In this document: positions 1-38,791 of the stretch, in pieces
Position numbering within the stretch: position 1 is the stretch's first letter
Layout: every line of letters starts with the position of its first letter
From: Chrysochromulina tobinii
Taxonomy: Eukaryota
Assembly (NCBI GenBank): GCA_001275005.1
Contig: JWZX01003271.1
Span: 1-63,255, forward strand
Reading direction: 5' to 3'
DNA length: 63,255 nucleotides
Notes under the pieces: generated by a model
Told to the model about the DNA's origin: nothing
Database searches by the model: none
What the model saw: only the letters and a program-made list of their open reading frames with translations
Made by a program: the position numbers and the translations under genes

Positions 1-259
1 TGAACGTCTTGTTGCCGTGGTTGCGGTTGTTGTTCGTCAGGCGCCACTCGAGCTTCAACGCGGGGTAATCCGCCGGCATGATGTATGTGGTCGGGAAGAA
101 TTTGTACGGCTTGCCGCACGCGAGGAGCATCTTGTTGAGGTTGCGCGCGGTGCCCGCCTTGCGCACCAGCTCAAGCATGCCCGGGAAGTGGTTGATCTTC
201 TGCATGCGCCCCAGCTGGCCCACACGCTTGTTGGTCACCGCCCGGTCTGTCCAGCACAA
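1..259 (-). pseudogene. Fragment of a TTLL6/TTLL13-like tubulin polyglutamylase; 5' part cut off by the retroelement, 3' part runs off the window
   Basis: Manual minus-strand translation gives LCWTDRAVTNKRVGQLGRMQKINHFPGMLELVRKAGTARNLNKMLLACGKPYKFFPTTYIMPADY...KTF, the conserved N-terminal TTL-domain motif (WTD...QKINHFPGM...RK..ARN...FFP.T...PAD). Not in the ORF track. Confidence 0.85.
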
Positions 260-260
260 C

Positions 261-3200
261 GGTAGCGGCGACGGTAGCGCAGGTACTAACGACCGCGGCG
301 AGGACGGGGGCAGCGGCGACGAAGGCGAGGAGGGCGGATGCGGCGGCAGCAACGGCAACGGCCGCGCCGGTGGCGGCGCCAACATCACGTTCGGCTGCGC
401 CAGCGGCCGCGACGGCGGCGGCGACTACAGGTACGGAGGCGGCGGCGGCGACGGCAGTCGCAGCGCAACGGGTGCGGACGACGCGGGCGCAGGTGGGCGA
501 GGCACGAGCGCGAACAACGGCGAGAGCGACGGCGGCGGCGATGATCGCGGACGCGCCAAAACCCCGAGACGGACGGAGAAAAGGGTTGGCATCCTCCGGA
601 CACTACTCACATTGATGCAACTGGCGGCGGTAGAGATCGGCAACCCGAGGACGCACCGTACACCTCGACGCCCATCCCGCCCACAGGCAGACCAGCACAC
701 CGGGACGCCGGAACGGGCGGCCGCACGGGTCGCGGCGCCGATGGCGATATGGACGGAAGACGGCGGGTCCTACAGGGGAGACGACCGGGGCATCGGGGGC
801 GATGGCCAAGGCGGGCGGGGCGCCGACGACAGCGACCAACACGACGGCGACCGGGGACACGGAGGCGGGGGGTGGCTGGCCACGGTGATCGCACAGATGC
901 TACGCCATCGCCAAGAATCACGGCGTCGCACGAGTATCCTCAACATGGTCGCCCTTAACATTGCCCTATGGCACGGGGCAGCGACGTGGGCGGCGCGAGC
1001 GACGATGGCGGACGTGTACGCATGGGCCATTCGCGCCCCCGCGCATGTGCTGGTGCTCGGCACGGACCCAAGCGGCACCCGCGCGCTGGAACGCGCGGTC
1101 CAAGCGTGGAGGACAGCGACCGCGCAAGCATGCGACGGCGAAGGGGCGCTCATCATCACGGCGACGAGGATAGGGCTAAACGGACCATGGCAGGCAATCT
1201 TCGCGCCCAAGGACGCGGACGCCCACTCCCTCCTGCGCCTCGTGCGACAGGGCGTCACTCTCAGCCGGACGGAGGCGATCGCACAGCTAGCACCGGTCCG
1301 ACACGCTGTCGGCACGGCGCCCGCCATCACATTCATACCCCGCCTCGCTGCAGCGGCGCCATCCGGCGCAGGGCCATCGGGAAACGAACCGACCATGACG
1401 GCCAACGCAAAGGGGAAGCTGCCAGTGCGCCAATCGCGCGATCACCCGCGGGAAGGGCCGGCGGACCCGACGGCCGGACGACGGACAGCCTCTGAAGTTG
1501 CTTGGGCCACGCGGACTATGCAGGAAGAAGGGTACACCGTCACGGGGGGCATCCGACCCCAGGACGCGCGAGCCCTCGCCCGATACGTGTCGACAGGCAC
1601 CGACGACACCGAGCACGCCATGCGCTTCGACGAAGCGGCGATACGAGCGTACATCCAAGAAGTGGGGGGCGGACACGCGGACGATGCGTACACGACCGCA
1701 ATGCTGAAGCGGGCCTTCGCAGAACATGTCCGGCTGCGGCGCGGCGTCGAGTACGCCCACGGGCTCACCCGAGCGTACCTCACGGGTGGGGACACGACGG
1801 CAGACGAACCACAACACGTATGGCCGTTTGACGGCGTCCAATTACGCAGCGATCCGGGGGCGCGTCGACACCACTGCGAATGGGCAGAGGGCGCTACGGG
1901 CACGGTCATACGAAGCGCCGCGCGGGGTGACTGGACAGTGCGCCTCGACGGCACCGGCGCCAGTTACGAGGTGGACGTCCCGGGAACGGCGGTGCACCTA
2001 CTCACAGCGCGTGGATACTCAGCGGGGGACGTGGCCATCGCAGCGCGCGTGATCGGTACGGATCGAACCGCGACCGGGGCATCCGAGTCGACACACACAC
2101 ATAACGCCGTGCTACTCCTGCAGCGCACTCACAACAACGGGGGGAAGGACGTGGCCACATGGACAGCGTATCGCGGGGAAGACATGGCGACGGTGACGGT
2201 TTCGGAGGCCGACCTTCGGCGGGCACCATGGCAGGCGCGATCACGAGAACGCCCGGAAGACTCACCCAAGGGCGGGGAAGCGCTTGTGGCGATGGCGCAG
2301 CGGGCCTATGCAATCACCGGGGAGTGGGGAGAGGATGCGATCACACATATGCGGAGTGCCGCGAGGGGCAAAGGCCTCGCGATCAGCGACTCCGAGGCCA
2401 AGGCGGCGCTCGCGGAAGCGCGGCGCCGATGGCAAGGGGGCCACTCCTGCGCCCGCATGGTCACACTCAACCACGGGGGGATCGTCATGAGACTTCGAGA
2501 AGCAACAGCGGCGACGCCCGGTGTACGCAGAATGGCGACGGCGTCGGACAGCCAAGACACAGCCGCATTGTCCTGGGAGGCCGACGCCCGGCTCTGGAGG
2601 ACGATGCACACCCTTGCCGCCAACAATGACATCGTCATCCTCCAGGAAACACACCTCCCGGAACGGGATCCGGAAGGGCTCAGCTCGCGCGTCAAGCAAG
2701 CGCTCACATGCGGAGAATTCTCGGGGTGGAACGTAGCCGAGTCACCCGCACCCGAGGATGACACATTCGCGGGCATCTTGATGTGGTGGAACGCGGCGAC
2801 GGTGGAGCTGACGGGCATCGAGGTACTCGTGCCGGGACGGCTGCAGCGAGCACGGGTACGCATACGCGCGGACGGCACGGAGCTGTTGGTCGTGAACGCA
2901 TACGTCCCCACGAGACGTGGCAATCCGAACGCACGACAGGCCGCCGTGCTAGAATCCGTCCGGGCGCACATACAAAATGCAATTGACAAGGCCGACGAGG
3001 ACGGCGACGAGATCGCGATTGGAGGCGACCTGCAAGCACAGTCCACGGACGCACTCGACGCGCGCAAGGTCACCGGCAGCAACGAGTACAACGCATGGCT
3101 GGACGCGCTGTGCGCGGACAATTGCCTCGTGAGCGTCGGAGACGACGACCCCACATATAGCGCGGGAGCAGGAGGGCCGCAGACTACCATCGACCACTGG

Positions 3201-6200
3201 CTCGTCAGCTCGGGCCTGACCAGCAGGTCAACCGCGGAAGTGGGGGCCGGTGCGGACGGGCTTGCGGGGGACACGGCAGGCGCACACGGGCACCACTCAC
3301 TCCAGCTCAGCCTCGCGCTGCGCACCGCCGACGCTGAGGAGATGGAAGAAGAGTGGGAACGGCGGGAACCGCAGGTACCGCCTATGGACGAGGACGAATG
3401 GAGCGTCTTCCACGCGAAGGAAGAAGACACAGCGAGGGAGGCGGTGGACACAGCCGACAACGAGCACCGAAAGGAGGTCGAACACAAAGGAATCGGATCG
3501 TTCGGGCTGGCGGCGCGTAGACTGGGGGCCATCGAGGGGGCGCTCAAGGGCCTGGTGTCCGACATACAAGACCTGAGCAGCAAAACGGGTCCCCAACAGG
3601 GCACCAAAATCGGGCGCTTGCACGCGCGGATGCTCAGATGGCGCAGATGGCTACGCATCTGCGACGGCTCGAAGTACTTCCCCGACACGCACCCGATGTT
3701 CCGAACGGACAACTGCGCTGACGTCCTCGGGGACGCGCCAGAGCGCGACGAGTCGGTGCGCAGCGCCATACGAAGCTCGACTCCCGGGGTGCCGCGGCGG
3801 AATGCACTACGGGAGGCGTGCCGCCGCAGGTTCTTACATGCGCGAGACAAGTACGAGAGCGCGGTGACCGCCGGAGCGGTGGACACGGACAGGGTACGTA
3901 CTCGCCTCCTTGAGGACATCAGAAAAGCGGTCGAAGACGGGCGCGACCCGCGGTGGGAATGCTTCCGAGCGGTCGGTAGGGCGAAGGCGGCGCTCGCAGG
4001 CAAACGGACCGCGCCGAGACTGGATCAACCGGGCATGCGCACTATTAAACGCACGGGCGCCACCGTAGCGGAGACGGGCACGGGGCCGGTGCTGCACGCG
4101 ATCCACGACGAAAGCGTCGTCATGCACCAGGAGAGAGGGGCGAGCGCGGCGGGCGCCTTGATCGCGCAAGAGCGCATGGCGGCTGCAGGGCTGCCGGCAC
4201 CGTGGCCACACACGGTACACGAGCGGCGGGAAGACGCGGAAGTCGCAGCGGCAGATGAAGCGCGCGCGATGCACGAGGAGCGCTTGCGAGCAGCGTGGGC
4301 ACAATGGCACGCGGACACGGCGGTGGCGCCGGACGCGACATACGACCCGTGGGAAGCGATCCACACGGCATCATACCCGCCTCTCGTCGACGCCTTGAGG
4401 AAGGAGATGACGATACTCATCACAAACGACGGCATCGATCGCGGCCTCCAACGCTTCAGGGCACGACAGGGGGTCGGGGTGGGTGGATTCTCGGGCATAT
4501 GGGTGGCCCGTGCCAGCGACGCCACGCGACAACGCTACGCGACGGCACTAAGAGACATCGCCGCAGACGTACTCGTCGCCGCCGACGCGCTGGAACGTGC
4601 ACGCAACCCACAGGAAAGACGCGTCGCCGTGGAACTGATACGCGCGGCGGCGCCGCCAGGGTGGACACAGTGGATTATTATGCTCCTCACCAAACCCGGC
4701 AAAGCGCTGGACGTGCTCAGCAAGAGACGGGACATCTGCCTGCAGCCGCACTCGCTCAAGCTGTGCGCAAACGCGGTGGCATCCCACTACGTGGAGCTCC
4801 AGGAGCACGTCCAGCCGGAGGCGAACACTGGATTTCGGGAACGCGGAGCGGCAACGACCACGGCCCTTTGGCTAGGCCTAACCAAGGAAGAGGCGGCGTC
4901 GGAACGGAAGGGGTGGTACTGCGGCTTCGTCGACAAAGGGGGCTTCTTCCAGTCCTGCGTGCGACGAGCCCAGAGGGTCGTCGAAGCACGATTCGGCGTG
5001 CCAACTTCGGTCACCAACCTCATCATGGCTATCCATGAGGCACTCGTGGTCCGCTATGATTCGGGGATGGGAATCACCCACGGCACGGAATCCCACGTGG
5101 GCAACGGTCAGGGCGACTCTATCGCGCCCATGCGGAGTATGATACCACTCGCCATAGAGACGCGCGCGGTTGAGTGGCTCGTAGCGGGGTTTCAGTTCGC
5201 GGCCCCACGTGGTGTCCAACGCACTCGCACTCCACAAGGATGGTTCGCGGACGACGGCGCCTTCGTCGTGGACTCCCTCCGCGCCCTCCAACAGGCTTTC
5301 ACGGTTAGCTCGGCAATGGCGCGCGTCCTGGGATTCACCGTCGGAATCGACGTCGACGCTAAAGGCGTCCCGACGGGCGACAAAACCGGATGGATGGGCA
5401 GCGAGTGGCGCGACGGCCAGTGGGTGGAGGCGGGCGATGCAGTGACCATACGACTCATCGACGGCAGAGCGGTGCCGAGGGTGCAAGGTTACTACAAACA
5501 CCTCGGAATCCGGCAAACGCCCAAAGCCGACTGGGCGGTAGCCCGACAGGTGGTCACGCATCGGTGCGGGGGCATCGCAAGTGCGCTCTCACGCCTCGGC
5601 GTCCTCACGGCGGAGGAATTCATTGACACGGTGGACGCCGCAACCACCACGGTCGTCGCGTACTACGGCGCCGCATTCCCGATAGGCAGAAAGGCGTGCG
5701 AAACGATCGACGTGGCCAAACGACGCGGGCTCGCGCGCATGGGGCACGCAGGAGAACGCACATCCCGATGGCTCGCGCACGCGCCGCGACCGCTCGGACT
5801 CGGCATGGCCATCACGTGGGCACACGCGGCCGCGGCGCTCGTGGTGGAAGTGGACCGGGCCATCAACATGCCCGAGACGGCTCCGGCGCACGTGGCCGTC
5901 ACGAGCAGATTGGCCAAGGAGTTCTGGAGGTGGGGGTGGCGACCCTCTACGGGGGCACAAGTGCCGCTTGCATGGAACCCGACGTGGATCCACGACACGC
6001 TCACGGAGGAAGGCATCATTGAAGCGTGGCAGCTCTATCTGCAGACCGCCAAAGTGCGCACGAGCTCGAGTACCACCGGAAACGGATGCGCCGACGCACT
6101 CGCGCCTAACTACCGACTACCGGACGACCCCCTAGGCGCGGACGCTCCGATCTGGGAAAGAGAAGGGCGTACATACGGCAGGCGCCTGGCCAGACTTGGC

Positions 6201-9200
6201 GGCACCCTGCGCAGGCACTTTCTCGCCGACGACGGCGGATGGCGCAGCGAAAAGGAACTGGGCGAATATCTGGGCCGCGGAGGGCGCATCGTCGGGGGAC
6301 GCAGGATCGGAGCGAAACTTACGACGGCGGAGGCTCAAGAGTACCGCACCCTGCTGCAACAACTACACCCGGACGAGAACGAATGGGCATCGGATCAACG
6401 CCCGGGACCACGGGAGCGGCCAGCCGAAGTGCACGCCGTCGAGGTCCTCAGCGCGGGGGGCAATGAGTATCGCGGCACGGAGTATCTTCTCGAATACAAC
6501 GACGGCACCGTGCGATGGGAACGGCGCCCCAGGGCCATGGCACCGGGGCTGACAAGAAAGATGCGCGCGGCACGGGCACAGCACCTCGAGGAAGGGGAGC
6601 TCACCATTGCGCAACACATCGAGGGACGGCTCGGGGGCACACGCGGCGCACTGTGGCTCGCAACGAAAGCACCGCTATCGGTCGGAGCGCGCCACGTCCA
6701 GGACATCCTCGCCGAGGCGGCCAAGGAACTCGGGGAAGGATGGTTTCGACCCCCGATCGTCGCCGAGCGCACAGCGGCGCGCATGGGGCCTGGAACCGGC
6801 AACGCCCAAGGCGCGCGACTCGCAGCAACGGAGGCTCACGCGGCCGCGGCACGCGCGGACGGGGCGACGGCAGACGGGTCCGAGACGCCGGGCGCACGCG
6901 CCGCCCTCGCGGAAAAGGCAGAGGCCGCGTGGGCGTGGGCAGCAGTGATGGACGTTTACGCAACATCCCTTGAAGCGCCCGCAAACGAAAGGGATGCACG
7001 ACAACAATCCGTGGACAGGGCGTACGCGGAATGGATAGCGGCCTCGGCACGGGCGGCGACAGGGGCAACGGCGCAGGCGGTGATCGAATGGGCGCAGGCG
7101 CTCCCGGAACACGATATGGCGGCCGACACGAACGCCGAGGGCGCATACGCAGCGGCGGAGGCGGACGAGCGATCCCCGGCCAAAAGGTTTCGACCTAGCG
7201 CGCGGCCGGAATGCTTCATGGGATCAGTCGGGCCGGGGGGCGCGGATGGACGCAAACGAAGGCAGCCGTCCCTGGAGCTCTCCGAGGCACAACGGCAAGC
7301 CGCGGGCTCACTACCCCAGTGCATGCCCATACCTGAGGAGAACGACATGGAACAGGACCCGAGGGTGGCGTGGGACGGCACGTGGCGCCAGTGCGGGATG
7401 CACGTGGAACGGGTGGAACGCATGTGGAACATCGCACCGAGGCGGCTGGGATGGAAGCTCACCAGTGAGCAGCTAACGCAGATACAGCGCCAACACGACG
7501 CCGCCCTCGTACGCAAGGCCGCGACCCGCAGGACGCACCACACCAGCGACGCTCACCCAATCGCCGGGACACTGGCGGAAGAGACGCCGACTGCCGAGCA
7601 CGATTCGAGTGCACCCGCGTACGGCACGAACCATCGACAACGACAAATGGCGGAAGCCATGGCCGCAGAGGAGCGCGCGGACGACGCGGCGGACGCCGCG
7701 CTCGAGGACGAGTGGGGGATGACCGATTGGAGCGCGGCGGAGATTGAGGCCGCGGAGCGCGACGCCGCTGCCACAGGCTCGATGGACGACGACACGAGGG
7801 ATGGGTGGGACGCCATAGCGGCCATGGAGGCGTACGAAGACGCGGAGACCGCTGCAGAAGCGTATCTTCGCGAGGATACGGCGGCTCCCCACGGCCGCGA
7901 ACGGGCAGACGGCTTGACCGACGCGCAGCAACGGCACATCGCGACACAACGCGTCCTGGCCCTCGAACGCAAACAGAGACGCGAGGCGGAGGAGTCCCAA
8001 AGCAACGCCGACGCCCTCGCCGCCAAGACGGCGGAGGCGGAGCAGGAATGGCGGCACAGGAAAGCAGAGGCCCTGGAAGCACGACAAGCCGCGAATGCTC
8101 GCATGCTGGCCTCGGAGGGCGCACGCACGCTGAGCTGGGCAACGAACTATCAAGAGGCGTCCTCCAAGGACATGGAGCGTAACGCGGCGGCACGACGCGT
8201 TGATCTCGCACGAGCGGCGGAACAGACGGCCCGCGATGCGTGCGCCCACCTGACGGGAGAGACGACACGGCGCCTTCAAAAGGCGCGCGCAGAGCTCGCG
8301 CGCCTGAAAGGGACTGACGGTGACGAAGCGGGCATCACGGACGCGGAACGAGCCGCCCTCGAACAGGACGAAAGGGAGGACGAGGCGCTACGCGAGACCG
8401 CGCGGCAACAGGCCGCGGCACAAGTTGCAGCGGCGCAGGCCGACCGCGCGAAGCGCGCGAGCGTTGCGGAAACGGCGGACAGACTCAGAGCCGCGCGGGA
8501 AGCAACGACGGAAGCGCTCCACGCAATTAACGGGTCCGAGGCACACGCAAAAAGGCGCGAACGGCAGGAGGGGGAGCGGGCGGAGGAGGAAGCGCGGTAC
8601 GCGCACGTCGAGTACTGGGACACGCTCACGCCGGAGCAGCGAGCGGCAATCCTCGCGAGCCCGACGCTGCGCCTCTGCGTGCGACACCGGGAAATGGAGC
8701 AACGGGAGTCGATGCGCGCCACGGATAGCCGAATCGACATCAGCATGGAGCCCAAGGAGCGCCGCAACATGGACACGGCGCATACGAAACGCGCCGCGGC
8801 CATCGGGCTCGCCATCGAACGACGGTACGGAATAAGGTACGCGTACGCGGTGGACGGCAGCAAGGACGACGCGGAGGCGTGGGGGGAGCACGCGACCGGC
8901 GAACGAGCGGCGGCCTGGGGGGCATGGGACGGGATCACGGCATACGGTGGCGCGCTTCCTCCGGGCACGGGTAACCAGGAAGCCGAACTTTATGCGATTG
9001 AACGTGTCCTGGCACGGCACACGCGGGGCGATCGGATCCTCCTAATGTGCGACTGTCAAGCGGCGCTTGCGTTGATTGAGGCCGCATGGCGAAGCGGCAG
9101 GGCGGGCACGGGGAGCCCCGCGACCGGCAAAACGGGGGGCCTATTGGTCGAAGCGATCATACGGCACCGCCTGCGCATCACGAGCAGAGAAAGGGACGAC

Positions 9201-12200
9201 ACGCCCAGAGGGTGCGTCTGCTTCATGTGGGTCAAAGCTCATGGCGGCGGGGTGGTGCCGAACGCATACGCGGACGCGATCGCCAAGTCATGCCTCACCG
9301 CGGAGGTGGACTACGCCACCGTGGACGACCCATACCGCGCCTTGCCACGGGCGTGCCTCTATATGGCTCAGCCCGAGCCACGAGACGACACATGGGAAAT
9401 GGGGAACCGGCGGTTCTCATGCATCACCGCGGACCGATCCCTCCGCAACCTCATCATCGACGGCATCACGAGACAGGTCATCGCACAACTACCTCGGCAG
9501 TCGCACGCGAAGTGCGACGAGCGCGTAGTCGCGGCGGCGACGTGCACGGGGGGGCGACCTGCGGGAGCGACTACAGGCGCCGGACCGAAACATGGCATGA
9601 CGGAACCGACGGGGACCGGTCGCGCGATGCGACTGCGCTCCGACGACCTACGACAACGTCACGACGAATGCCCACTGTGCAAGGAGCAGGGGCCACATGA
9701 GGGGGTGCACGTCCTGAGGTGCGCCGGGATCCCTCCAGAACACAGAGACGCAGCCGTGACGCAAATGGTGGCCGCGCTCGCCGCGGCCGCGGACTCGCTA
9801 CCGTCGGGGAACCGGCGGGCACCCGCGGAGAACACGCTACAGGCGTGGCGAGAGGCGGCACATCGCGCCGGACAATACGGAGCAGTGGCGGCGCTCGGGC
9901 AGCCACCGACTGGTGAGGAGACCCGCGCACCTCAAAACGCACGCGAGTGGGCGAGATCTGGATGGCGACGAAAGGGCGATCTGTACGAACTCGACCTGCA
10001 CAGCGAGACGGAGAAGGCGGACTGGAGGATCGCGGTGTGGGGCGCCATAGCAGTTCGCAGCGCATACGCGTCCGCCGCCAAGGCGGCCAGCGCGGAACAC
10101 GCCACCGCAGAAGTGAAACAGGCGTGCGAAGAGGCCACACGGCGACTGGAGGACGGTCCCCTCGGTTCGGCGAGTCGCGCCGCGGGGGACGCGGCGGTGG
10201 ACGAACACACAGACGCGCCCCACATCACCCCCAGGACGGACGGGGGAGGCATCGGAGCAGTCCGCCTGCGCTTCACACAGCTCCAACCGCACCACCTCGC
10301 ACACACGCGTGACTGGACAGAGCGCCGCTCGTGGCTGCCCGCGGCGCGCGCAAAGGCCGGGACGACAGCCTGGTCCGCGCATGCACACAGGGGCTTCAGA
10401 TCGGAGGGTGGGGCAGCAGGACGGAAGGAGGAACAGGCGGTAGCCGTGGACGCTCAGGATGCAGTATACAAAATCGCGGCTCCAGCGGCGTGGCCGTGGC
10501 TGGTGGAGTACGAAATGGACGGATACGAAGCGACGCGACCGGACGGGACGGAGGGGGCGCGCACACTCACCACCCTCCGACTCGGACACGCGGAAGGCGC
10601 CAACACAGTGATCGTCAGCACGAGATACGTCCGGGCAAACGGCCAACGCTACCAGGACGGGGGAAACGCGATCACTATAGAGACAGAACTCATGGGGGAC
10701 GCAGACGGGAAAGGCATGCGAGCCATGTTCTGGGACATCGCCCTCGGAGGTCATGAAACGACGCACGGGGCACAGGCGACGGTACGGCGAGCCGCGGCTG
10801 CCGCCGCTTCCAGGTGCCTAGGGGACGCGGACGGCACGCAATGGCGCGCCCTCCGATGCGCGATGGGCGGGGAAATCCCGCCCCCCACAATTTGCGAACG
10901 CATGGAGGCGATACGGGCCCGAAAAGCGGCGGGCGACGCCGCGGCGACCGCGGCTGAGGCCCGCACGAGAGCTGCACTCAACGACGCCCAACACGAACAG
11001 GACCCCACCCCCGCACCGACACGTATCACCAATGGGGCGGAGCGACTGCGGAAGGCGGCGGCGGAGCTCGGGGTCCACGTCGACGCCCCCCGCCAGGCGC
11101 TGCGACGCGCCTACCTCCGGGAGGCTCTAGATGCACACCCAGACAAGGGGGGCAGCGACCTTGCCTTCCAGAAGCTGCGCGAGGCGTTTCAGGAACTGGA
11201 AGGCGCGACGGAGGAAGCGCGCCAGGGTGCCGCGCAGGAGATCCGAGACGGACACGACACGGCGGAGCGGACCCGACACGACGCGAGGCAGGGCACCGAA
11301 CGGGCGGAAGCGCGACTATCGGACGTGATTGCGAAGGCTCGGGCGGCCGCGGCCCAATGTGCGGAGGCCGAGTGGGTCCCGACATGGAAAGCCACGGCAC
11401 AACACCTCCGAGATGCCGGCGGGGCATTCATGCTACTATGGACGCGATACCAAGGATGCGTGATCCGGCATCTGAACGCGCTCGCACGCGAAGTACCTGG
11501 GGCGAATTACAGGACGCATGGAGAACGCCAAGCAGCGGCGGCCGTGGTACGTCGAGCCGAGCAACGCCACGCGAGAGAGTGCGCGAAACAACAAGCGGTG
11601 GACGAAATGCGACGGGCTGAACAACGAGTGCTACACGAGCGCAGAAAAGCGGCGGAGGCGGCGGCGGACTTACTCAGACGCCAGGGCGCGCTGGCGTACG
11701 CTGAGGCTGCGCGCCTGGATGGCGCCACCCTCACACAAGACTACCGCGTCAAACTCCCGTGGGCCATGTGGCCGAAGGAAGCGGAAAGCGAACGGTACGA
11801 ACTGTACGAGATCGCAGAGATCGACACCGAATGCACATACGTGGTGCTGGAGCGCACCGGCGCGAGCTATGCCGAGAGGCGGCGACCGATCCGCAAGGGA
11901 GCTCGACCTCACTGGAACCGCTTCACGGTCGACTGGGATTGCTTCACCGGCGTCCGACGATACGGAACAAATCAGCGGGGCGTCATCATCGTACACGAAG
12001 ACGCGACGGAAGGGACGTCGGCAGAGGATGAGGGCACAGACGAGGAGGAGCGCCAGCAACAAGGACTCGAGGCACGAAGAGCGGCGCACCGCGCGGCGCG
12101 CCTGATGGGGATAGCCCGCGCGACCGACCGCGACGCCGCGAAGCTGCTACATGAGGAGGAACAACTGGGGCGGGGACACACGGCAGCGGAGGACGCGTTA

Positions 12201-14486
12201 CGACGAGAGGAAGCGGAAGGAACGGACGACGTTCCATCGGACGACAGCGACGATCACCGACGAGACACGGCACCTGATGCCACGCCTCAAGAGACCGGGA
12301 CCGGGGGGACGCAACTCGCACGGCGCAGGGGTACGTGGAATGGGAAACACTGGGCCAAGGAGGCATGGACCGGACCCGTCGCGGCCATGGAGTACGCGGC
12401 GGCGTGGCGCGAGGACCCCCCCGAGCGCCCACCGCGATCGACGGCGGCGGACGCCGCGCAGCGGAAGGCGCACCAAAGGTCCCTCGAAGGGAACCGGGAG
12501 GGCAACCGAAGAGCGGCGACCACGGCGATACGCGAAACCGCGCGACGTAGCGGCGGACTGTGGGGCGCCGCCGCAGACGCGGAGGCCGTGGACGACCAGA
12601 GACATGCCATAGCGCATCTTGCACACGCCGCGCGACAGTGGCACGCACGGGAACAGCCGGGACAGCGGCGGCGAGGAGGGACAGCGGCGACGCAAGCAGT
12701 CGCGGCGGCGGCAGATGCCCTGCAACGGAAACGGCCCGCAGCGGATACAGTGGACGCGGCCGCTCGCAAGCGGGCCATGCTCGACACCGCCCACATCATA
12801 GCCGCCACGAGGGCTCACCTCGAGCTCCCCGGTGACAACAGCGAGGCGCGGGCTCGACAGATGCTCCGACGTGCCACGGGGGGCTCCTCCGCGCCCATGG
12901 GGGGCCGCGGACTACAGGGCGCGGAGGTGCTCATGGAGACCGTGCTCGCAAGCCTGCCGGAAGTATCGGAAGCGGACGGTGAACTGTACCGCGAAGCGCC
13001 ACAAGCCGCGGGGATACTTGGAATACCGGATAGCGAGGCCCACACGACGATCTCCGAAGACGCGACGGAGAGGAGCGCCGTACGACGGATATCACTCGAC
13101 GTCGACATCTGGGTCGGAAACTTGCACGCGCAGGGTCGCGCAGCGCAGCGACCGGAGGGCGCGATAGACAGAAGGGTGGACCGGACGACGGCGTGCGGCA
13201 ACCCGTTCCTCATCGCCCCGAACAACGAACGCGAACGGAACGCCGCATGCAGAGCATACGCGGAACTGATCCATGGTGACCCGGAGAGTCCCGATGTCCG
13301 GAAACTCGCCACAGAATACGGCCTACGCGTCGACCTGAAGTTCGCCACACCAGAGGCGAAGCAGGCGCGGGACAACGCGCTCCGCCAACTCGAACGGGAC
13401 GTGCTGACCCTGCACCGGGGGACATCCATCCGCCTCATGTGCCACTGCGCCCCCAAACGGTGCCACGCGCACGCCATCGCAAGGGAGATCCGGCGGCGCC
13501 TCCGGACACGCGGCGTGGACATACACGTGGACGACGGGGGTTGGGAAGGACCACCAGAGGAACGCATGGACGCAGACATGCACGCGGACAATGAGGAGGC
13601 CGGAGAGATGACGGTCGACGGAACCGACGTCACCGCGGCGCGCCAAACAGACCCGGGGACACCGAGCCATACCCCCACCGACACAACGCGCGCCCCGAGG
13701 GCGCTCCCGGGAGACTGGGTGAGCCGCCTGTTCGACAAACTACTCGCTCACAAATACAACGGGCGCAACCAAAGGGCATACGAGGAATTCATGGCACAGA
13801 TGGCGACGAAGGCAGCGGGGACGGCGGCGTCCTCGGCAGAGACGGCGACGGAGGTTGCGACTTCGCGGGCGGGGGCGGACGGGGAAAGAGCGCGGGCGGC
13901 AGAGGACAGAGGGGCGGGGGCGGCGAATCGGAGGAAAGGTCCGGAGGCGTCGGAGAGGAAGAGGGCGGCGGTGACTAAGGCGGCGGCGGAGAGGGAGCAG
14001 AGAGCGAGGGAGGTAGCGGAGAGGGGGAAGGGGTCGGTGGAGATGGCGAGGGGGGCGGCGGAGGAGACGGCGAAGGGAACGGAGGTGCCGAGAGCGGGGA
14101 CGACGACGACGACGACGACGGCGACAAGGGAAGCGACGACGGCGCAGGTGCTAGCGGAGGCAGAGACGACGGCGGCGGCGGACGAGTGGGCACGTCCGCG
14201 CGACACATTAGAACCAGACGACAGCCACGAGAACGGAACAGCCCAAGCAACACGGCCGAAGACCGCGCACGGCGACAGGGACGACAACGAACGGGCGCAC
14301 GGACACGACGGCACAACCAGGGGACGGGATGACGGAACGGAGGACACGAGGGCGGAGCAGCGAGCGGGGGGGGACGGCGACACGACAGGCGGCGTCAAGA
14401 TTCGCGCGCCACGCGTCCGGAACGAAGAATACCGGGCAGCGAAGCGCCGTCGCAACGACAAGTACCAGGGGGGCAAGGCGACGTGA
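261..14486 (+). CDS. Retrotransposon polyprotein (open from the junction; first element Met at 615 gives ~4620 aa)
   Basis: ORF 78..14486. The 78-259 part is antisense TTLL sequence, so the annotated start is spurious. Confidence 0.85.
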   Translation, partial: GSGDGSAGTNDRGEDGGSGDEGEEGGCGGSNGNGRAGGGANITFGCASGRDGGGDYRYGGGGGDGSRSATGADDAGAGGRGTSANNGESDGGGDDRGRAKTPRRTEKRVGILRTLLTLMQLAAVEIGNPRTHRTPRRPSRPQADQHTGTPERAAARVAAPMAIWTEDGGSYRGDDRGIGGDGQGGRGADDSDQHDGDRGHGGGGWLATVIAQMLRHRQESRRRTSILNMVALNIALWHGAATWAARATMADVYAWAIRAPAHVLVLGTDPSGTRALERAVQAWRTATAQACDGEGALIITATRIGLNGPWQAIFAPKDADAHSLLRLVRQGVTLSRTEAIAQLAPVRHAVGTAPAITFIPRLAAAAPSGAGPSGNEPTMTANAKGKLPVRQSRDHPREGPADPTAGRRTASEVAWATRTMQEEGYTVTGGIRPQDARALARYVSTGTDDTEHAMRFDEAAIRAYIQEVGGGHADDAYTTAMLKRAFAEHVRLRRGVEYAHGLTRAYLTGGDTTADEPQHVWPFDGVQLRSDPGARRHHCEWAEGATGTVIRSAARGDWTVRLDGTGASYEVDVPGTAVHLLTARGYSAGDVAIAARVIGTDRTATGASESTHTHNAVLLLQRTHNNGGKDVATWTAYRGEDMATVTVSEADLRRAPWQARSRERPEDSPKGGEALVAMAQRAYAITGEWGEDAITHMRSAARGKGLAISDSEAKAALAEARRRWQGGHSCARMVTLNHGGIVMRLREATAATPGVRRMATASDSQDTAALSWEADARLWRTMHTLAANNDIVILQETHLPERDPEGLSSRVKQALTCGEFSGWNVAESPAPEDDTFAGILMWWNAATVELTGIEVLVPGRLQRARVRIRADGTELLVVNAYVPTRRGNPNARQAAVLESVRAHIQNAIDKADEDGDEIAIGGDLQAQSTDALDARKVTGSNEYNAWLDALCADNCLVSVGDDDPTYSAGAGGPQTTIDHWLVSSGLTSRSTAEVGAGADGLAGDTAGAHGHHSLQLSLALRTADAEEMEEEWERREPQVPPMDEDEWSVFHAKEEDTAREAVDTADNEHRKEVEHKGIGSFGLAARRLGAIEGALKGLVSDIQDLSSKTGPQQGTKIGRLHARMLRWRRWLRICDGSKYFPDTHPMFRTDNCADVLGDAPERDESVRSAIRSSTPGVPRRNALREACRRRFLHARDKYESAVTAGAVDTDRVRTRLLEDIRKAVEDGRDPRWECFRAVGRAKAALAGKRTAPRLDQPGMRTIKRTGATVAETGTGPVLHAIHDESVVMHQERGASAAGALIAQERMAAAGLPAPWPHTVHERREDAEVAAADEARAMHEERLRAAWAQWHADTAVAPDATYDPWEAIHTASYPPLVDALRKEMTILITNDGIDRGLQRFRARQGVGVGGFSGIWVARASDATRQRYATALRDIAADVLVAADALERARNPQERRVAVELIRAAAPPGWTQWIIMLLTKPGKALDVLSKRRDICLQPHSLKLCANAVASHYVELQEHVQPEANTGFRERGAATTTALWLGLTKEEAASERKGWYCGFVDKGGFFQSCVRRAQRVVEARFGVPTSVTNLIMAIHEALVVRYDSGMGITHGTESHVGNGQGDSIAPMRSMIPLAIETRAVEWLVAGFQFAAPRGVQRTRTPQGWFADDGAFVVDSLRALQQAFTVSSAMARVLGFTVGIDVDAKGVPTGDKTGWMGSEWRDGQWVEAGDAVTIRLIDGRAVPRVQGYYKHLGIRQTPKADWAVARQVVTHRCGGIASALSRLGVLTAEEFIDTVDAATTTVVAYYGAAFPIGRKACETIDVAKRRGLARMGHAGERTSRWLAHAPRPLGLGMAITWAHAAAALVVEVDRAINMPETAPAHVAVTSRLAKEFWRWGWRPSTGAQVPLAWNPTWIHDTLTEEGIIEAWQLYLQTAKVRTSSSTTGNGCADALAPNYRLPDDPLGADAPIWEREGRTYGRRLARLGGTLRRHFLADDGGWRSEKELGEYLGRGGRIVGGRRIGAKLTTAEAQEYRTLLQQLHPDENEWASDQRPGPRERPAEVHAVEVLSAGGNEYRGTEYLLEYNDGTVRWERRPRAMAPGLTRKMRAARAQHLEEGELTIAQHIEGRLGGTRGALWLATKAPLSVGARHVQDILAEAAKELGEGWFRPPIVAERTAARMGPGTGNAQGARLAATEAHAAAARADGATADGSETPGARAALAEKAEAAWAWAAVMDVYATSLEAPANERDARQQSVDRAYAEWIAASARAATGATAQAVIEWAQALPEHDMAADTNAEGAYAAAEADERSPAKRFRPSARPECFMGSVGPGGADGRKRRQPSLELSEAQRQAAGSLPQCMPIPEENDMEQDPRVAWDGTWRQCGMHVERVERMWNIAPRRLGWKLTSEQLTQIQRQHDAALVRKAATRRTHHTSDAHPIAGTLAEETPTAEHDSSAPAYGTNHRQRQMAEAMAAEERADDAADAALEDEWGMTDWSAAEIEAAERDAAATGSMDDDTRDGWDAIAAMEAYEDAETAAEAYLREDTAAPHGRERADGLTDAQQRHIATQRVLALERKQRREAEESQSNADALAAKTAEAEQEWRHRKAEALEARQAANARMLASEGARTLSWATNYQEASSKDMERNAAARRVDLARAAEQTARDACAHLTGETTRRLQKARAELARLKGTDGDEAGITDAERAALEQDEREDEALRETARQQAAAQVAAAQADRAKRASVAETADRLRAAREATTEALHAINGSEAHAKRRERQEGERAEEEARYAHVEYWDTLTPEQRAAILASPTLRLCVRHREMEQRESMRATDSRIDISMEPKERRNMDTAHTKRAAAIGLAIERRYGIRYAYAVDGSKDDAEAWGEHATGERAAAWGAWDGITAYGGALPPGTGNQEAELYAIERVLARHTRGDRILLMCDCQAALALIEAAWRSGRAGTGSPATGKTGGLLVEAIIRHRLRITSRERDDTPRGCVCFMWVKAHGGGVVPNAYADAIAKSCLTAEVDYATVDDPYRALPRACLYMAQPEPRDDTWEMGNRRFSCITADRSLRNLIIDGITRQVIAQLPRQSHAKCDERVVAAATCTGGRPAGATTGAGPKHGMTEPTGTGRAMRLRSDDLRQRHDECPLCKEQGPHEGVHVLRCAGIPPEHRDAAVTQMVAALAAAADSLPSGNRRAPAENTLQAWREAAHRAGQYGAVAALGQPPTGEETRAPQNAREWARSGWRRKGDLYELDLHSETEKADWRIAVWGAIAVRSAYASAAKAASAEHATAEVKQACEEATRRLEDGPLGSASRAAGDAAVDEHTDAPHITPRTDGGGIGAVRLRFTQLQPHHLAHTRDWTERRSWLPAARAKAGTTAWSAHAHRGFRSEGGAAGRKEEQAVAVDAQDAVYKIAAPAAWPWLVEYEMDGYEATRPDGTEGARTLTTLRLGHAEGANTVIVSTRYVRANGQRYQDGGNAITIETELMGDADGKGMRAMFWDIALGGHETTHGAQATVRRAAAAAASRCLGDADGTQWRALRCAMGGEIPPPTICERMEAIRARKAAGDAAATAAEARTRAALNDAQHEQDPTPAPTRITNGAERLRKAAAELGVHVDAPRQALRRAYLREALDAHPDKGGSDLAFQKLREAFQELEGATEEARQGAAQEIRDGHDTAERTRHDARQGTERAEARLSDVIAKARAAAAQCAEAEWVPTWKATAQHLRDAGGAFMLLWTRYQGCVIRHLNALAREVPGANYRTHGERQAAAAVVRRAEQRHARECAKQQAVDEMRRAEQRVLHERRKAAEAAADLLRRQGALAYAEAARLDGATLTQDYRVKLPWAMWPKEAESERYELYEIAEIDTECTYVVLERTGASYAERRRPIRKGARPHWNRFTVDWDCFTGVRRYGTNQRGVIIVHEDATEGTSAEDEGTDEEERQQQGLEARRAAHRAARLMGIARATDRDAAKLLHEEEQLGRGHTAAEDALRREEAEGTDDVPSDDSDDHRRDTAPDATPQETGTGGTQLARRRGTWNGKHWAKEAWTGPVAAMEYAAAWREDPPERPPRSTAADAAQRKAHQRSLEGNREGNRRAATTAIRETARRSGGLWGAAADAEAVDDQRHAIAHLAHAARQWHAREQPGQRRRGGTAATQAVAAAADALQRKRPAADTVDAAARKRAMLDTAHIIAATRAHLELPGDNSEARARQMLRRATGGSSAPMGGRGLQGAEVLMETVLASLPEVSEADGELYREAPQAAGILGIPDSEAHTTISEDATERSAVRRISLDVDIWVGNLHAQGRAAQRPEGAIDRRVDRTTACGNPFLIAPNNERERNAACRAYAELIHGDPESPDVRKLATEYGLRVDLKFATPEAKQARDNALRQLERDVLTLHRGTSIRLMCHCAPKRCHAHAIAREIRRRLRTRGVDIHVDDGGWEGPPEERMDADMHADNEEAGEMTVDGTDVTAARQTDPGTPSHTPTDTTRAPRALPGDWVSRLFDKLLAHKYNGRNQRAYEEFMAQMATKAAGTAASSAETATEVATSRAGADGERARAAEDRGAGAANRRKGPEASERKRAAVTKAAAEREQRAREVAERGKGSVEMARGAAEETAKGTEVPRAGTTTTTTTATREATTAQVLAEAETTAAADEWARPRDTLEPDDSHENGTAQATRPKTAHGDRDDNERAHGHDGTTRGRDDGTEDTRAEQRAGGDGDTTGGVKIRAPRVRNEEYRAAKRRRNDKYQGGKAT
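2455..3320 (+). other. APE-type (EEP) endonuclease domain of the polyprotein
   Basis: MVTLNHGG, DIVILQETHL, VVNAYVP, GGDLQA, PTY, TIDHWLVS, GHH occur in canonical EEP order. Confidence 0.85.
4440..5520 (+). other. Non-LTR reverse transcriptase domain
   Basis: LLTKPGK..RRDICL, NTGFR, FVDKGGFFQS, GNGQGDSIAP, WFADD (FADD at 5244-5255), YKHLGI. Confidence 0.92.
7458..7982 (+). other. Two RPA32C-binding-like helical motifs (7458-7523 and 7914-7982)
   Basis: LTSEQLTQIQRQHDAALVRKAA resembles UNG2 LSAEQLDRIQRNKAAALLRLAA. LTDAQQRHIATQRVLALERKQRR resembles the TIPIN/SMARCAL1 motif (L.EEQ...IE.N...AL.RR). Reference motifs recalled from memory. Confidence 0.6.
8835..9290 (+). other. RNase HI domain with intact catalytic residues
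   Basis: YAVDGS, NQEAELYAI, MCDCQAAL, WVKAH, NAYADAIAK (D-E-D-H-D). Confidence 0.9.
9669..9722 (+). other. LINE-type C-terminal CCHC zinc knuckle
   Basis: CPLCKEQGPHEGVHVLRC downstream of RNase H. Confidence 0.7.
11058..11201 (+). other. J-domain (DnaJ) within the polyprotein
   Basis: LGVHVDAPRQALRRAYLREALDAHPDKGGSDLAFQKLREAFQEL, with the HPD motif at 11136-11144. Confidence 0.88.
13107..13480 (+). other. DUF4326-like domain within the polyprotein
   Basis: VDRTTACGNPF...RNAACRAY...LMCHCAPKRCHAHAI matches the DUF4326 pattern (R...GNPF; L.C.C.P..CH...I). Confidence 0.8.
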
Positions 14487-15069
14487 GCCACAGGAGGACT
14501 GTTAGCGCCCGCACAACCAGGGCAATCCCAGGGCCCCCCCTACGAGTATAACGGCAGCCAAGATCGGCCTCTGGCTCCCTAAGCACGAGAGCAAAGACAA
14601 ATACGAGGACCAGGCAACATGTCCTACCAGGGGGGTAACGGCGATCGCGCAACCAGGCTAATCCGTGCGGGCTTCCTACGAGCGCACGAGGGGCGCCGAC
14701 CGGCCTCGCATCTTCAAGAACACGACAAGCGGTACGACGAGTACGAGGACGAGACGACGTGTACTACCGGGGGACTGATGGCGTTCGCGCAGTCAGGCTG
14801 ATCCCAGCGTGCTCCCCTACGAAGGCGACGGCGACACGGAACGGCCTCGAGCTCCACACGCACAAGCGGAACAACAAGCACGGGGACGAGACGACGTGTA
14901 CTACCGGGGGACTGATGGCGTTCGCGCAGTCAGGCTGATCCCAACGTGCTCCTTACCGCGGGGGCCGACGACTCGATACTACCGGGGGACTGGTAGCGCT
15001 AGCGCAGCCAGGCTGATCCCAGCGTGCTCCACTTACCACTACGAGACAAACGCGACGCCGATCCGCCCT
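14474..15069 (+). repeat. Degenerate tandem array in the element 3' UTR: 5 copies of a ~70-bp core, period ~137 bp
   Basis: Cores at ~14474, 14611, 14751, 14888 and 14966 (consensus gacgacgtgtactaccgggggactgatggcgttcgcgcagtcaggctgatcccagcgtgctcc). Confidence 0.9.
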
Positions 15070-15373
15070 CGGTTTTAAAAACAAAACAAACGCTCGCAGG
15101 TTTTTTCCTCCCCACTTCACTAAAAGCATATCAAGGCAAGGACGGGCCGCGCCTAGCAATAGGTTCCCAGAGCCTAAATGTAACCGGGTAACCGGGTTCG
15201 CAGTCTACTTAATTAGAATTTAATATTGAATTTCGGATCGTTACATCCACTGGCAGGGGCACATCCTCTCTAGGTGCCGGTTGGCGCTGGGGAGGATCGA
15301 CTGCAAAAGCCAACATTTGCACTCCGCATCATCGTCGGATCCATACCAGTGGTGACGACCCACAACGGGCCGT

Positions 15374-35000: not shown

Positions 35001-38000
35001 TCAAAGCTCTTCTTTGGCCTCAATCGGCTTGGCTTTGGCACCACCTTTGGTGGGAACGCATTCGGCGTTGATGGCCTTGTGCACAGCAACCTTGACCACG
35101 GAGCAGCGTGGTGCACACGGCAGCGAGGCCCACGCGATGTCCGAAAAGAGTTCGTCCATTGTCAGACCGCACAGAATGCTCACGTCTGCAAGCCGGTCCA
35201 CTCCAAGGGATTGCAGCAAGGGAAGATGCTGGGTCTCGCTCAACTCATGGGCTCTCAACCATCGTCTCAACGGATCTGCTGCCTCGAGAATGCGAATCGC
35301 ATCTGCATGGCCCATCCTTGCAGCGAAGTGCAGCGGCGTCGCCTTCTCGTCGGCCTGAGCTTCGACCGACGCGCCCGCCGCCACGAGCGCCTTGATCGCA
35401 TCTGCGTGCCCTTTTCCCGCAGCGACGTGCAGCGGCGTCCTCTTCGCGTCGTCCTGAGCTTCGACCGACGCGCCCGCCGCCACGAGCGCCTTGATCGCAT
35501 CTGCGTGGCCTCGTAACGCAGCCAAGTGCAGCGGCGTCCTCTTCCCGTCGGTCCGAGTTTCGACCGACGCGCCCGCCGCCACGAGCGCCTTGATCGCATC
35601 TGCGTGGCCTCGTAACGCAGCCAAGTGCAGCGGCGTCCTCTTTGTGTCGTCCTGAGCTTCGACCGACGCGCCCGCGGCCACGAGCGCCTTGATGGCATCT
35701 GCGTGGCCTTCTATCGCGGCGATGTGCAGCGGCGTCATCTTCTCGTCGTCCTGAGCTTCGACCGACATGCCCGTCGCCGCTAGCGCCTTGATCGCATCTA
35801 CGTGGCCTTTTCCCGCGGCAGAGTGCAGCGGCGTCCTCTTGTTGTCGTCCCGAGCTTCGACCGACGCGCCCGCCGCCACGAGCGCCTTGATCGCATCTGC
35901 GTGGCCTTCTATCGCGGCGATGTGAAGCGGCGTCCTCTTCTCGTCGTCCTGAGCTTCGACCCACGCGCCCTTCACCACAAGCACCTTGATAGCATCTGCG
36001 TGGCCTTGGGCCGCAGCCGAGTGCAGCGGCATCCATTTCGTGTGGTCCTGAGCTACGACCGACGCGCCCGCCGCCACGAGCGCCTTGATCGCATCTGCGT
36101 GGCCATTTCCCGCAGCCCAGTGCAGCGGCGTCATCTTCCCGTCAGTCCGAGCTTTGACTGACGCGCCCGCCGCCACGAGCACCTTGATCGCATCTGCGTG
36201 GCCATTTCCCGCAGCCCAGTGCATTGGCGTCGCCTTCTCGTCGTCCTGGGCTTCGACCGATGCGCCCGCCGCCACGAGCGCCTTGATTGCATCTCCTTGG
36301 CCATATATCGCAGCGAAGTGCAGCGGCGTCGCCTTCTCGTCGGCCTGAGCTTCGACCGACGCGCCCGCCGCCACGAGCACGTTGATCGCATCTGCGTGGC
36401 CATTTCCCGCAGCCGAGTGTAGCGGCGTCCTCTTCTCGTCGGCCAGAGCTTCGACTGACGCGCCCGCGGCCACGAGCGCCTTGATCGCATCTGCGTGGCC
36501 ATTCCCCGCCGCCGAGTGTAGCGGCGTCCTCTTCACGTCGTCCTGAGCTTCGACCGACGCGCCCGCCGCCACGAGCGCCTTGATAGCATCTGCGTGGCCA
36601 TTTTCCCGCAGCCGAGTGTAGCGGCGTCCTCTTCTCGTCGTCCAGAGCTTCGACTGACGCGCCCGCCGCCACGAGCTCCTTGATAGCATCTGCATGGCCA
36701 TTTCCCGCCGCCGAGTGCAGCGGCGTCGCCTTCTCGTCAGCCAGAGCTTCGATCGACGCGCCCGCCGCCACGAGCGCCTTGATCGAATCTGCGTGGCCTT
36801 GATTCGCAGCCCAGTGCAGCGGCGTCATCTTCGTGTCGGTGTGAGCTTCGACTGACGCGCCCGCCGCCACCAGCGCCTTGATCGCATCTGCGTGGCCTTC
36901 TGCCGCAGCGACGTGCAGCGGCGTCCTCTTCACGTCGTCCTGAGCTTCGACCGACGCGCCCGCCGCAACGAGCGCCTTGATAGCATCTTCGTGCCCTTGG
37001 GCCGCAGCCCAATGCAGCGGCGTCATTTTCTCGTTGGCCGGAGCTTCGACTGGCGCGCCCGCGGCCACGAGCGCCATGATAGCATCTTCGCGGCCTTCTA
37101 CCGCAGCAATGTGCAACGACGTCAATTTCTCGATGGCCGGAGCTTCAACTGACGCTCCCGCCTCCACAAGGGCCTTGATCGCCTTTGCGTGACCATTTCC
37201 CGCAGCCCAGTGCATTGGCGTCGCCTTCTCGTCGTCCTGGGCTTCGACCGATGCGCCCGCTGCCACGAGCGCCTTGATAGCATCTGAATGGCCTTCTGCC
37301 GCTGCAATGTGCAGCGGCGTCCTCTTCTCGTTGGCCTGAGCTTCGACCGATGCGCCCGCTGCCACTAGCGCCTTGATAGCATCTGCATGGCCTTCTGCCG
37401 CTGCAATGTGCAGCGGCGTCCTCTTCTCGTCGTCCTGAGCTTCGACCGACGCGCCCGCCGTCACGAGCGTCTTGATAGCATCTGCGTGGCCATTTCCCGC
37501 CGCCGAGTGCAGTGGCGTCCTCTTCTCGTCGTCCTGAGCTTCGACTGACGCGCCCGCCGCCACGAGCTCCTTGATCGCATCTGCATGGCCATTTCCCGCC
37601 GCCGAGTGCAGTGGCGTCCTCTTCACGTCGTCCTGAGCTTCGGCTGACGCGCCCGCAGCCACTAGCGCCTTGATAGCATCTGCATGGCCATTTCCCGAAG
37701 CCGAGAGTAGCGGCGTCCTCTTCACGTCGTCCTGAGCTTCGACTGACGCGCCCGCGGCCACGAGCGCCTTGATCGCATCTGCGCGGCCTTGTGCCGCAGC
37801 ACCGTGCAGCGGCGTCCTCTTCTTGTCGTCCTGGGCTTCGACCAACGCGCCCGCCGCCACTAGCGCTTTGATAGCATCTGCGTGGCCTTGTGCCCCAGCA
37901 ATGTGCAGCGGAGTCCTCTTCTTGTCGTCCTGGGCTTCGACTGACGCGCCCGCCGCCACGAGCGCCTTGATAGCATCTGCGTGGCCATTTCCCGCAGCCC

Positions 38001-38370
38001 AGTGCAGCGGCGTCATCTTCTCGTTGTCCTGGGTTTCAACCGCCGCGCCAGCCGCAGCGAGCGCCTTGATCGCATCTGCGTGGCCATCTGCCGCAGCGAT
38101 GTGCAGCGGCGTCGCCTTCAGCGGCGTCCTCTTCACGTCGGTCCGAGCTTCGACCGACGCGCCCGCCGCAACGAGCGCCTTGATCGCATCTGCGTGGCCT
38201 TGTGCCGCAGCGATGTGCAGCGGCGTCCTCTTCTCGTCGTCCTGGGCTTCGACCGACGCGCCTGCCGCCACGAGCTCATCGATTTTCGTGACATCATTAG
38301 CACGCGCAGCTCGATGCATGTCAGTGGAGGCCTGCGAGAATGCAAGTACAAGTACAAATGCCGCCATCAT
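35001..38370 (-). CDS. Signal-peptide-like N-terminus, ~30 near-identical ankyrin repeats and a C-terminal SAM-like domain; +1 frameshift at 36601-36604
   Basis: MMAAFVLVLAFSQA; 99-nt repeats TPLHxAAxxGHADAIKALVAAGASVEA; LRRWLRAHEL...LQSLGVDRLADV. An extra base in one GGAAAT unit splits the ORF. Confidence 0.85.
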
Positions 38371-38791
38371 CACTATGGAGTCGAACTCGACAAATCCACA
38401 CGGGGCTGCTGTGTGAACCAGTGAACGTACCGGTAACACGACAGACCACAGACGCGACAACCTGTGTGAATGTTAACACGCGTCGGGATCCTCTTAACAT
38501 TCAGGGCGGGTCTGGTTCCCAATAAGTTCCCCATCGGCTCGCGGGGGTCCTAATAGTTAAAAAGAGACGCTCGGGGTCAAACTTACCTATAACCCTAACC
38601 TCCCCGCTAACATCAAACATGTATCAGTTTCTTTCCGTTAAACATCCCTTACTCGCCTGTAGCATGTGCGACTTTTTCGACGGGAACGAAAGAGCCCGTC
38701 CGCGGTCTTTTCTCTTTATACATTTACTACCCCGGGACCACTTGCCTCCCTAAGATGACCATTGAAGATGACCAAATAAATGCGCGCCAGG

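Follow-up and report, generated by a model that had tools for sequence, protein, structure and literature searches.

The 63,255-nt window analysed here, the whole stretch of Chrysochromulina tobinii DNA introduced above, contains a non-LTR retrotransposon whose protein carries, between reverse transcriptase (RT) and RNase H, an RPA32C-binding-type helix (motif 1; positions 7458 to 7523, plus strand) resembling the peptides by which SMARCAL1 and TIPIN bind the winged-helix domain of RPA32 (RPA32C). The motif is real and partly conserved and, judging from its sequence, appears to be a host motif mimicked by a retrotransposon. It is likely that motif 1 would bind host RPA32C as SMARCAL1, TIPIN and UNG2 do, and we give a probability of roughly 0.6 to the fuller reading that it docks on the RPA2 winged helix and tethers the retrotransposon protein to RPA-coated single-stranded DNA (ssDNA) during insertion. 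A second helix of the same type (motif 2; positions 7914 to 7982, plus strand) is weaker and decays in some lineages. The main doubts about the RPA reading are the Gln in place of Asn at position 12 of the motif and the loss of the motif in four distant relatives.

The retrotransposon copy occupies positions 260 to 15197 of the plus strand, since alignments of related loci start at 260 and stop at about 15197, and the 3' flanks differ between copies. Its 5' junction lies at about 260 and its 3' end is a tandem GTAACCGG tail (15180 to 15197). The same tail was present at nine of the 10 loci examined and was followed there by differing flanks, which marks the family as mobile non-LTR elements. 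A single open frame, 4,805 amino acids from stop to stop, runs from 69 to 14486, and its portion upstream of about 260 is not derived from the element. This frame encodes, all on the plus strand, an APE-type endonuclease domain (2619 to 3245; Pfam PF03372, E 3.2e-5, slightly below the curated cut-off), a divergent RT core with an FADD motif (4719 to 5342; Pfam RVT_1, E 0.029 only), a conserved block ending in DPRVAW immediately 5' of motif 1 (7086 to 7376), an RNase H domain (8898 to 9290; PF00075, E 9.8e-5, below the curated cut-off), a CCHC zinc knuckle after RNase H (9669 to 9722) whose Cys/His pattern is kept in alignment A11, a DnaJ domain (11067 to 11201; PF00226, E 1.6e-7) and a DUF4326 domain (13158 to 13481; PF14216, E 2.5e-8). 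RT and RNase H are about 1,000 residues apart. An APE endonuclease and an RT in a single frame, a structure without LTRs, a tandem-repeat 3' tail and dispersed copies were all found, the domain scores being weak. RT is the best-conserved part of the element, with a mean pairwise identity of 0.88 among four lineages; neither the RT profile nor a whole-family profile gave a useful match in the PDB.

Metagenome contigs yielded 17 related loci, and a gene model named as Chrysochromulina (P0009) is 84% identical across the linker between RT and RNase H. The viral contigs yielded neither relatives of the element nor a match to the RPA32 pattern. Short contigs of three RNA libraries, which come from two studies, match parts of the element, with low depth and with no library accounting for more than 0.11 of the sampled words; as the coverage is partial and the libraries possibly contain DNA, these contigs are not taken as evidence of transcription. 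The remainder of the window holds eukaryotic genes, and this, with the identity to P0009, makes a haptophyte the likely host. A 99-nt ankyrin repeat occurs about 30 times at 35221 to 38407, where a one-base frame shift near 36500 splits the ORF, and a fragment of a tubulin-tyrosine-ligase-family gene on the minus strand (1 to 260) adjoins the element. One related locus (L009) has the same 3' flank as the window, yet its element sequence extends upstream of 260, so the 5' junction in the window reflects either an allele truncated at its 5' end or a misjoin.

Several further features of the element were observed. The DnaJ domain, lying here in a retrotransposon ORF, is kept in the distant relatives P0003, P0004 and P0028, and DUF4326 is also kept in P0028. 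After the CCHC knuckle, within 9576 to 11048, lies a conserved beta-rich domain whose predicted fold has a pTM of 0.65 and for which Foldseek found no match in the PDB. The 3'-UTR contains repeated hairpin-forming units (14597 to 15040, plus strand), two to six per copy in the window and in L010, L012, L013, L014 and L020. The frame of these units is fixed and their inner hairpin variable, with pairing maintained across lineages; they are a candidate structured RNA element and have no match in Rfam. Relative to the window copy, internal inversions of 0.1 to 0.9 kb occur in L011, L012, L013, L014, L018, L021, L022, L023 and L024, caused by either biology or assembly. At the 5' end of the ORF of a P0002-type copy (L020, 18 to 2600) there is an in-frame fusion to an ARM-repeat-like sequence of about 860 residues.

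Both motifs, which the sequence-only reading had proposed as RPA32C-type peptides, lie in frame between RT (the weak RVT_1 match) and RNase H, at residues 2464 (motif 1) and 2616 (motif 2) of the ORF. They share with the SMARCAL1 and TIPIN peptides a 20-residue pattern in the same register, consisting of L, T, EQ, a hydrophobic residue at position 9, Ala16, Leu17, Arg19 and Arg or Lys at position 20. Ala16 and Arg19 of motif 1 are invariant in all 11 rows of alignment A7, and the C-terminal half of this motif is rich in Arg. Motif 2 of the window also has Ala16 and Arg19, although Arg19 is replaced by Gly in three of seven motif 2 rows. Position 12 was correctly read beforehand as Gln in place of a conserved Asn: in alignments with SMARCAL1 and TIPIN, which have Asn there, both motifs of the window have Gln. 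Positions 12 and 19 are those that we take to correspond to N77 and R84 of UNG2; the Asn equivalent to N77 is absent from both window motifs.

Every window of the ORF was scored by its match to the positions common to the SMARCAL1 and TIPIN peptides. The result showed that motif 1 scored 40 and motif 2 scored 36, the next best ORF window reaching 23. When the ORF was shuffled 3,000 times within 200-residue blocks, two shuffles reached 40, five reached 36 and none had two windows of at least 36, a test that corrects for position in the ORF and not for the earlier choice of this motif from among known ones. In the six-frame translation of the rest of the window, none of 95,992 windows reached 36 (maximum, 29). 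Motif 1 ranked first of 2,830 windows even when the LTxEQ half of the pattern was left out, and motif 2 came second among the 2,830 aligned windows when the whole pattern was used and third when only its second half was.

These scores bear on an explanation that dispenses with RPA. The two peptides might be ordinary N-capped linker helices rich in Glu, Gln, Arg and Ala, with motif 1 packing on the conserved block that precedes it and motif 2 starting a long spacer helix, so that their likeness to the host peptides would come from chance and from the reader's selection. Several LTxEQ-type helix starts are indeed present in the ORF and the key Asn is replaced by Gln, as this explanation would have it. 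However, shuffles that preserve local composition do not reproduce the scores, and motif 1 is singled out by the second half of the pattern alone. With the structural and conservation evidence given below taken into account, we consider this explanation unlikely.

Profiles made only from element sequences were then searched against 177,635 distinct PDB sequences. The profile of 13 copies, comprising both motifs, retrieved first the RPA32C-bound SMARCAL1 peptide (4MQV_B, E 7.2e-5), from an entry given in PMC11387677 as an RPA32C–SMARCAL1 co-crystal, and second TIPIN 193–216 (7PFO chain L, E 9.8e-4). This profile gave six matches at E ≤10, the third of which had an E of 0.023 and spanned 13 columns only. 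A profile of motif 1 alone returned the same top two (SMARCAL1, E 6.4e-4; TIPIN, E 0.23) among six matches, and a profile of motif 2 alone returned SMARCAL1 (E 0.017), TIPIN (E 0.1) and nothing else. The PDB matches included neither UNG2 nor XPA; the UNG2 peptide of 1DPU, with 16 residues, falls below the 20-residue limit of the library. Searches of the PDB with each motif peptide as a single sequence gave no match, the 13 motif copies matched no Pfam family, and a search of the ESM Atlas with residues 2419–2658 gave no usable match.

Two further sites, at 7278 and 8625, had been described beforehand as weaker echoes of the motif. The letters are present, but the resemblance is limited to the helix-start, LTxEQ-type part, and the sites were rejected as RPA motifs. 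When only the second half of the pattern is counted, they come 2442nd and 62nd among 2,830 windows, and both lack the Ala-Leu-x-Arg-Arg half. The first lies within the conserved block that ends in DPRVAW, and the second (8625 to 8651, plus strand) opens a block just before RNase H that is highly conserved, with an identity of 0.90. As a control, a profile of the echo sites gave 41 PDB matches, led by repeat proteins with the same helix start, and neither SMARCAL1 nor TIPIN was among them; that other LTxEQ helices fail to retrieve the two RPA32C ligands speaks against the plain-helix explanation.

Conservation was assessed among four lineages that are 59–70% identical over residues 2330–3090. 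The mean identity of motif 1 was 0.65, compared with a linker median of 0.44, and was equalled by 2% of 294 other windows within residues 2440–2840; over a wider span that includes structured blocks (residues 2100–2845), 17% of 639 windows matched it. Within motif 1, identity was 0.73 at the pattern positions versus 0.48 at the remaining ones. Motif 2 had an identity of 0.50, which 32% of linker windows equalled, and its pattern positions showed no excess (0.48 versus 0.52 elsewhere). Three of its seven rows (L013, L014 and L019) have Asn at position 12, and it has decayed in L022 and L023. The check proposed by the sequence-only reading, conservation above that of the surrounding linker, thus came out in favour of motif 1 and against motif 2, and the ordinary conservation of motif 2 is a point for its being a plain helix. 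So is the fact that motif 1 adjoins a conserved block and that the residues directly 5' of it, WNIAPRRLGWK, exceed the motif itself in conservation, a feature that the RPA reading does not explain.

Across a wider set of related sequences, motif 1 scored at least 35 in 18 of 25 distinct segments reaching past the DPRVAW block, a set from which one false anchor and one too-short segment had been left out; the 18 include many that are nearly the same copy, and one of them (L011) spans the breakpoint of an inversion. The motif is kept in P0031 and P0035, which are about 40% identical over the linker. Gln at position 12 is fixed within the close family, and the distant P0012 and P0039 have motif 1 with the canonical Asn at this position, P0039 in two tandem copies. 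Both have lost the LTxEQ start, yet their binding half is closer to the host pattern, which is hard to reconcile with likeness through a common helix start. In the same 25 segments motif 1 is missing from the distant P0003, P0004, P0032 and P0099, and it is therefore not required family-wide. The other negatives are P0009, which has a four-residue gap inside the motif, and P0040 and P0076, whose sequences diverge straight after the anchor. As only two of the 18 branches of the RNase H-region tree are well supported, gain of the motif cannot be ordered against loss. Taken together, the PDB profile, the chance test, the conserved pattern positions and the canonical Asn in distant relatives support the RPA32C-motif reading for motif 1, whereas motif 2 passes the tests of resemblance and is no better conserved than the linker.

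An AlphaFold model of residues 2330–2700 was built from 14 rows and had a mean pLDDT of 60, a modest level of confidence. In this model motif 1 is an isolated helix flanked by low-confidence stretches, and it is accordingly predicted to be free. Motif 2 forms the beginning of an 82-residue high-confidence helix, as expected of a spacer. The description of this region as a disordered linker is hence apt around motif 1 and does not hold at motif 2.

According to PMC8053108, UNG2 docks on the winged helix of RPA2 through a helix whose binding requires N77 and R84, and N77D abolishes binding. XPA, UNG2, SMARCAL1 and TIPIN are described in part of PMC11387677 as using one common RPA32C surface. By analogy, the motif 1 helix would dock onto the winged-helix domain of host RPA2, and docking could hold RT and the neighbouring RNase H at the displaced target strand or at the new cDNA strand, which would be single-stranded once RNase H has acted. 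RPA might then shield the insertion intermediate, or docking might direct insertion towards forks and gaps. On this reading motif 2 would be a helper helix: it would increase avidity, and some lineages could do without it.

The same sequence evidence would also suit a helix that binds RPA32C as a competitor, occupying the site of XPA, UNG2, SMARCAL1 and TIPIN and denying repair factors and fork remodellers access to the insertion intermediate instead of serving as a tether. The host ligands share one surface (PMC11387677, in part), and two copies could saturate nearby RPA. Nevertheless, the motif lies inside an RT/RNase H polyprotein that is probably scarce relative to RPA, and RPA promotes L1 insertion according to PMC10760644 and PMC8210275, so that we regard competition as improbable as the main role; tethering and local exclusion are, moreover, compatible with each other.

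Least probable of all is that the helix has a different partner, namely another winged-helix protein such as STN1 or a nucleic acid, or that it acts as a basic import signal. STN1 is a paralogue of RPA32. The Arg-rich C-terminal half and the fixed Gln at position 12 in the close family would fit such a role; the searches, however, indicate no other partner, and the only clear PDB matches are the two known RPA32C ligands. As a side observation on the RPA side, a eukaryotic RPA2 gene with introns (L001, 139 to 1440) was found on a short contig inside a bacterial genome assembly, and is likely contamination. The RPA32 proteins retrieved came from eukaryotes other than the host.

Two other candidate sites for fork proteins were seen in the ORF. 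One, a PIP-box-like site of non-canonical type in the variable tail at the C terminus (13770 to 13793, plus strand), has the form N[EQ][RS]A[IY]xxF[FM] and was found in nine of 17 element loci scanned (the window, L010, L012, L014, L016, L020, L022, L023 and L024), at one homologous place that forms a conserved island in the otherwise variable tail. The window has Q..Y..FM, and L014, L016, L020 and L024 have E..I..FF, which is nearer the canonical form and resembles the p68 box listed in Table 2 of PMC7225939; non-canonical PIP boxes without Gln exist, according to that source. The strict PIP box (Q-x-x-hydrophobic-x-x-aromatic-aromatic) had no match in the 15 proteins scanned, and shuffles yield a loose match 1–7% of the time. 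Because it is non-canonical and loosely matched by shuffles, the site is treated as a lead only. The second candidate is an acidic, helical stretch with a conserved Trp between motifs 1 and 2 (7698 to 7868, plus strand), the composition of which possibly fits an RPA70N-type motif (PMC10479964, in part). A PDB search with this stretch gave no match, which argues neither for nor against such a site, as motifs of this type have little common sequence (the same passages of PMC10479964).

A broader proposal can be built on these sites: an algal non-LTR family whose protein has an RPA32C-docking helix of its own, single or doubled, possibly with a box in the tail for binding PCNA and, between the helices, an acidic site of the RPA70N type, and recruits RPA directly, without the PARP2 step, copying the way in which UNG2 and ETAA1 ride the replication fork. 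We hold this proposal tentatively, at slightly below even odds.

The proposal bears on how non-LTR elements link their insertion to replication and keep their single-stranded intermediates safe, and motif 1 offers a 22-residue handle for testing direct recruitment of RPA. If the reading is true, a mobile element joins the host repair proteins from which this class of motif is known. No transposon-encoded RPA32C motif was found in the literature, in a search conducted largely outside subscription journals; none is described in the L1 passages of the reviews PMC10760644 and PMC8210275, and the retrotransposition section of one review that names RPA32C gives the PARP2 route only.

In its architecture the element is closest to the Dualen/RandI elements of algae, which likewise have one very long ORF with the order APE, RT, RNase H and CCHC (the ORF of Dualen-1_GCr being 5,287 residues; PMC5029228, in part). 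It differs from them in having DnaJ and DUF4326 domains after the CCHC knuckle, in its RT-to-RNase H distance of about 1,000 residues and in that no restriction-like endonuclease was detected after the knuckle, by Pfam, by eye as a conserved PD-(D/E)xK pattern or by Foldseek with the modelled residues 3170–3660. As no second endonuclease was detected, the element was not filed in Dualen/RandI.

With SMARCAL1 (4MQV chain B) and TIPIN (7PFO chain L) the element shares the pattern, its register and, for motif 1, the predicted free helix. It differs from them in having Gln for Asn at position 12 in the window lineage, in being encoded by a transposon and in carrying two copies. Human L1 is likewise a non-LTR element whose protein engages fork proteins through a short host motif, the PIP box by which ORF2p binds PCNA (PMC10760644 and PMC8210275, in part). 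In the same passages, the RPA that promotes L1 insertion has the proposed role of protecting new cDNA once the RNA is removed, and it is recruited indirectly, via PARP2 and poly(ADP-ribose). Recruitment of RPA in L1 is thus indirect, whereas in the element described here it would, as proposed, be direct.
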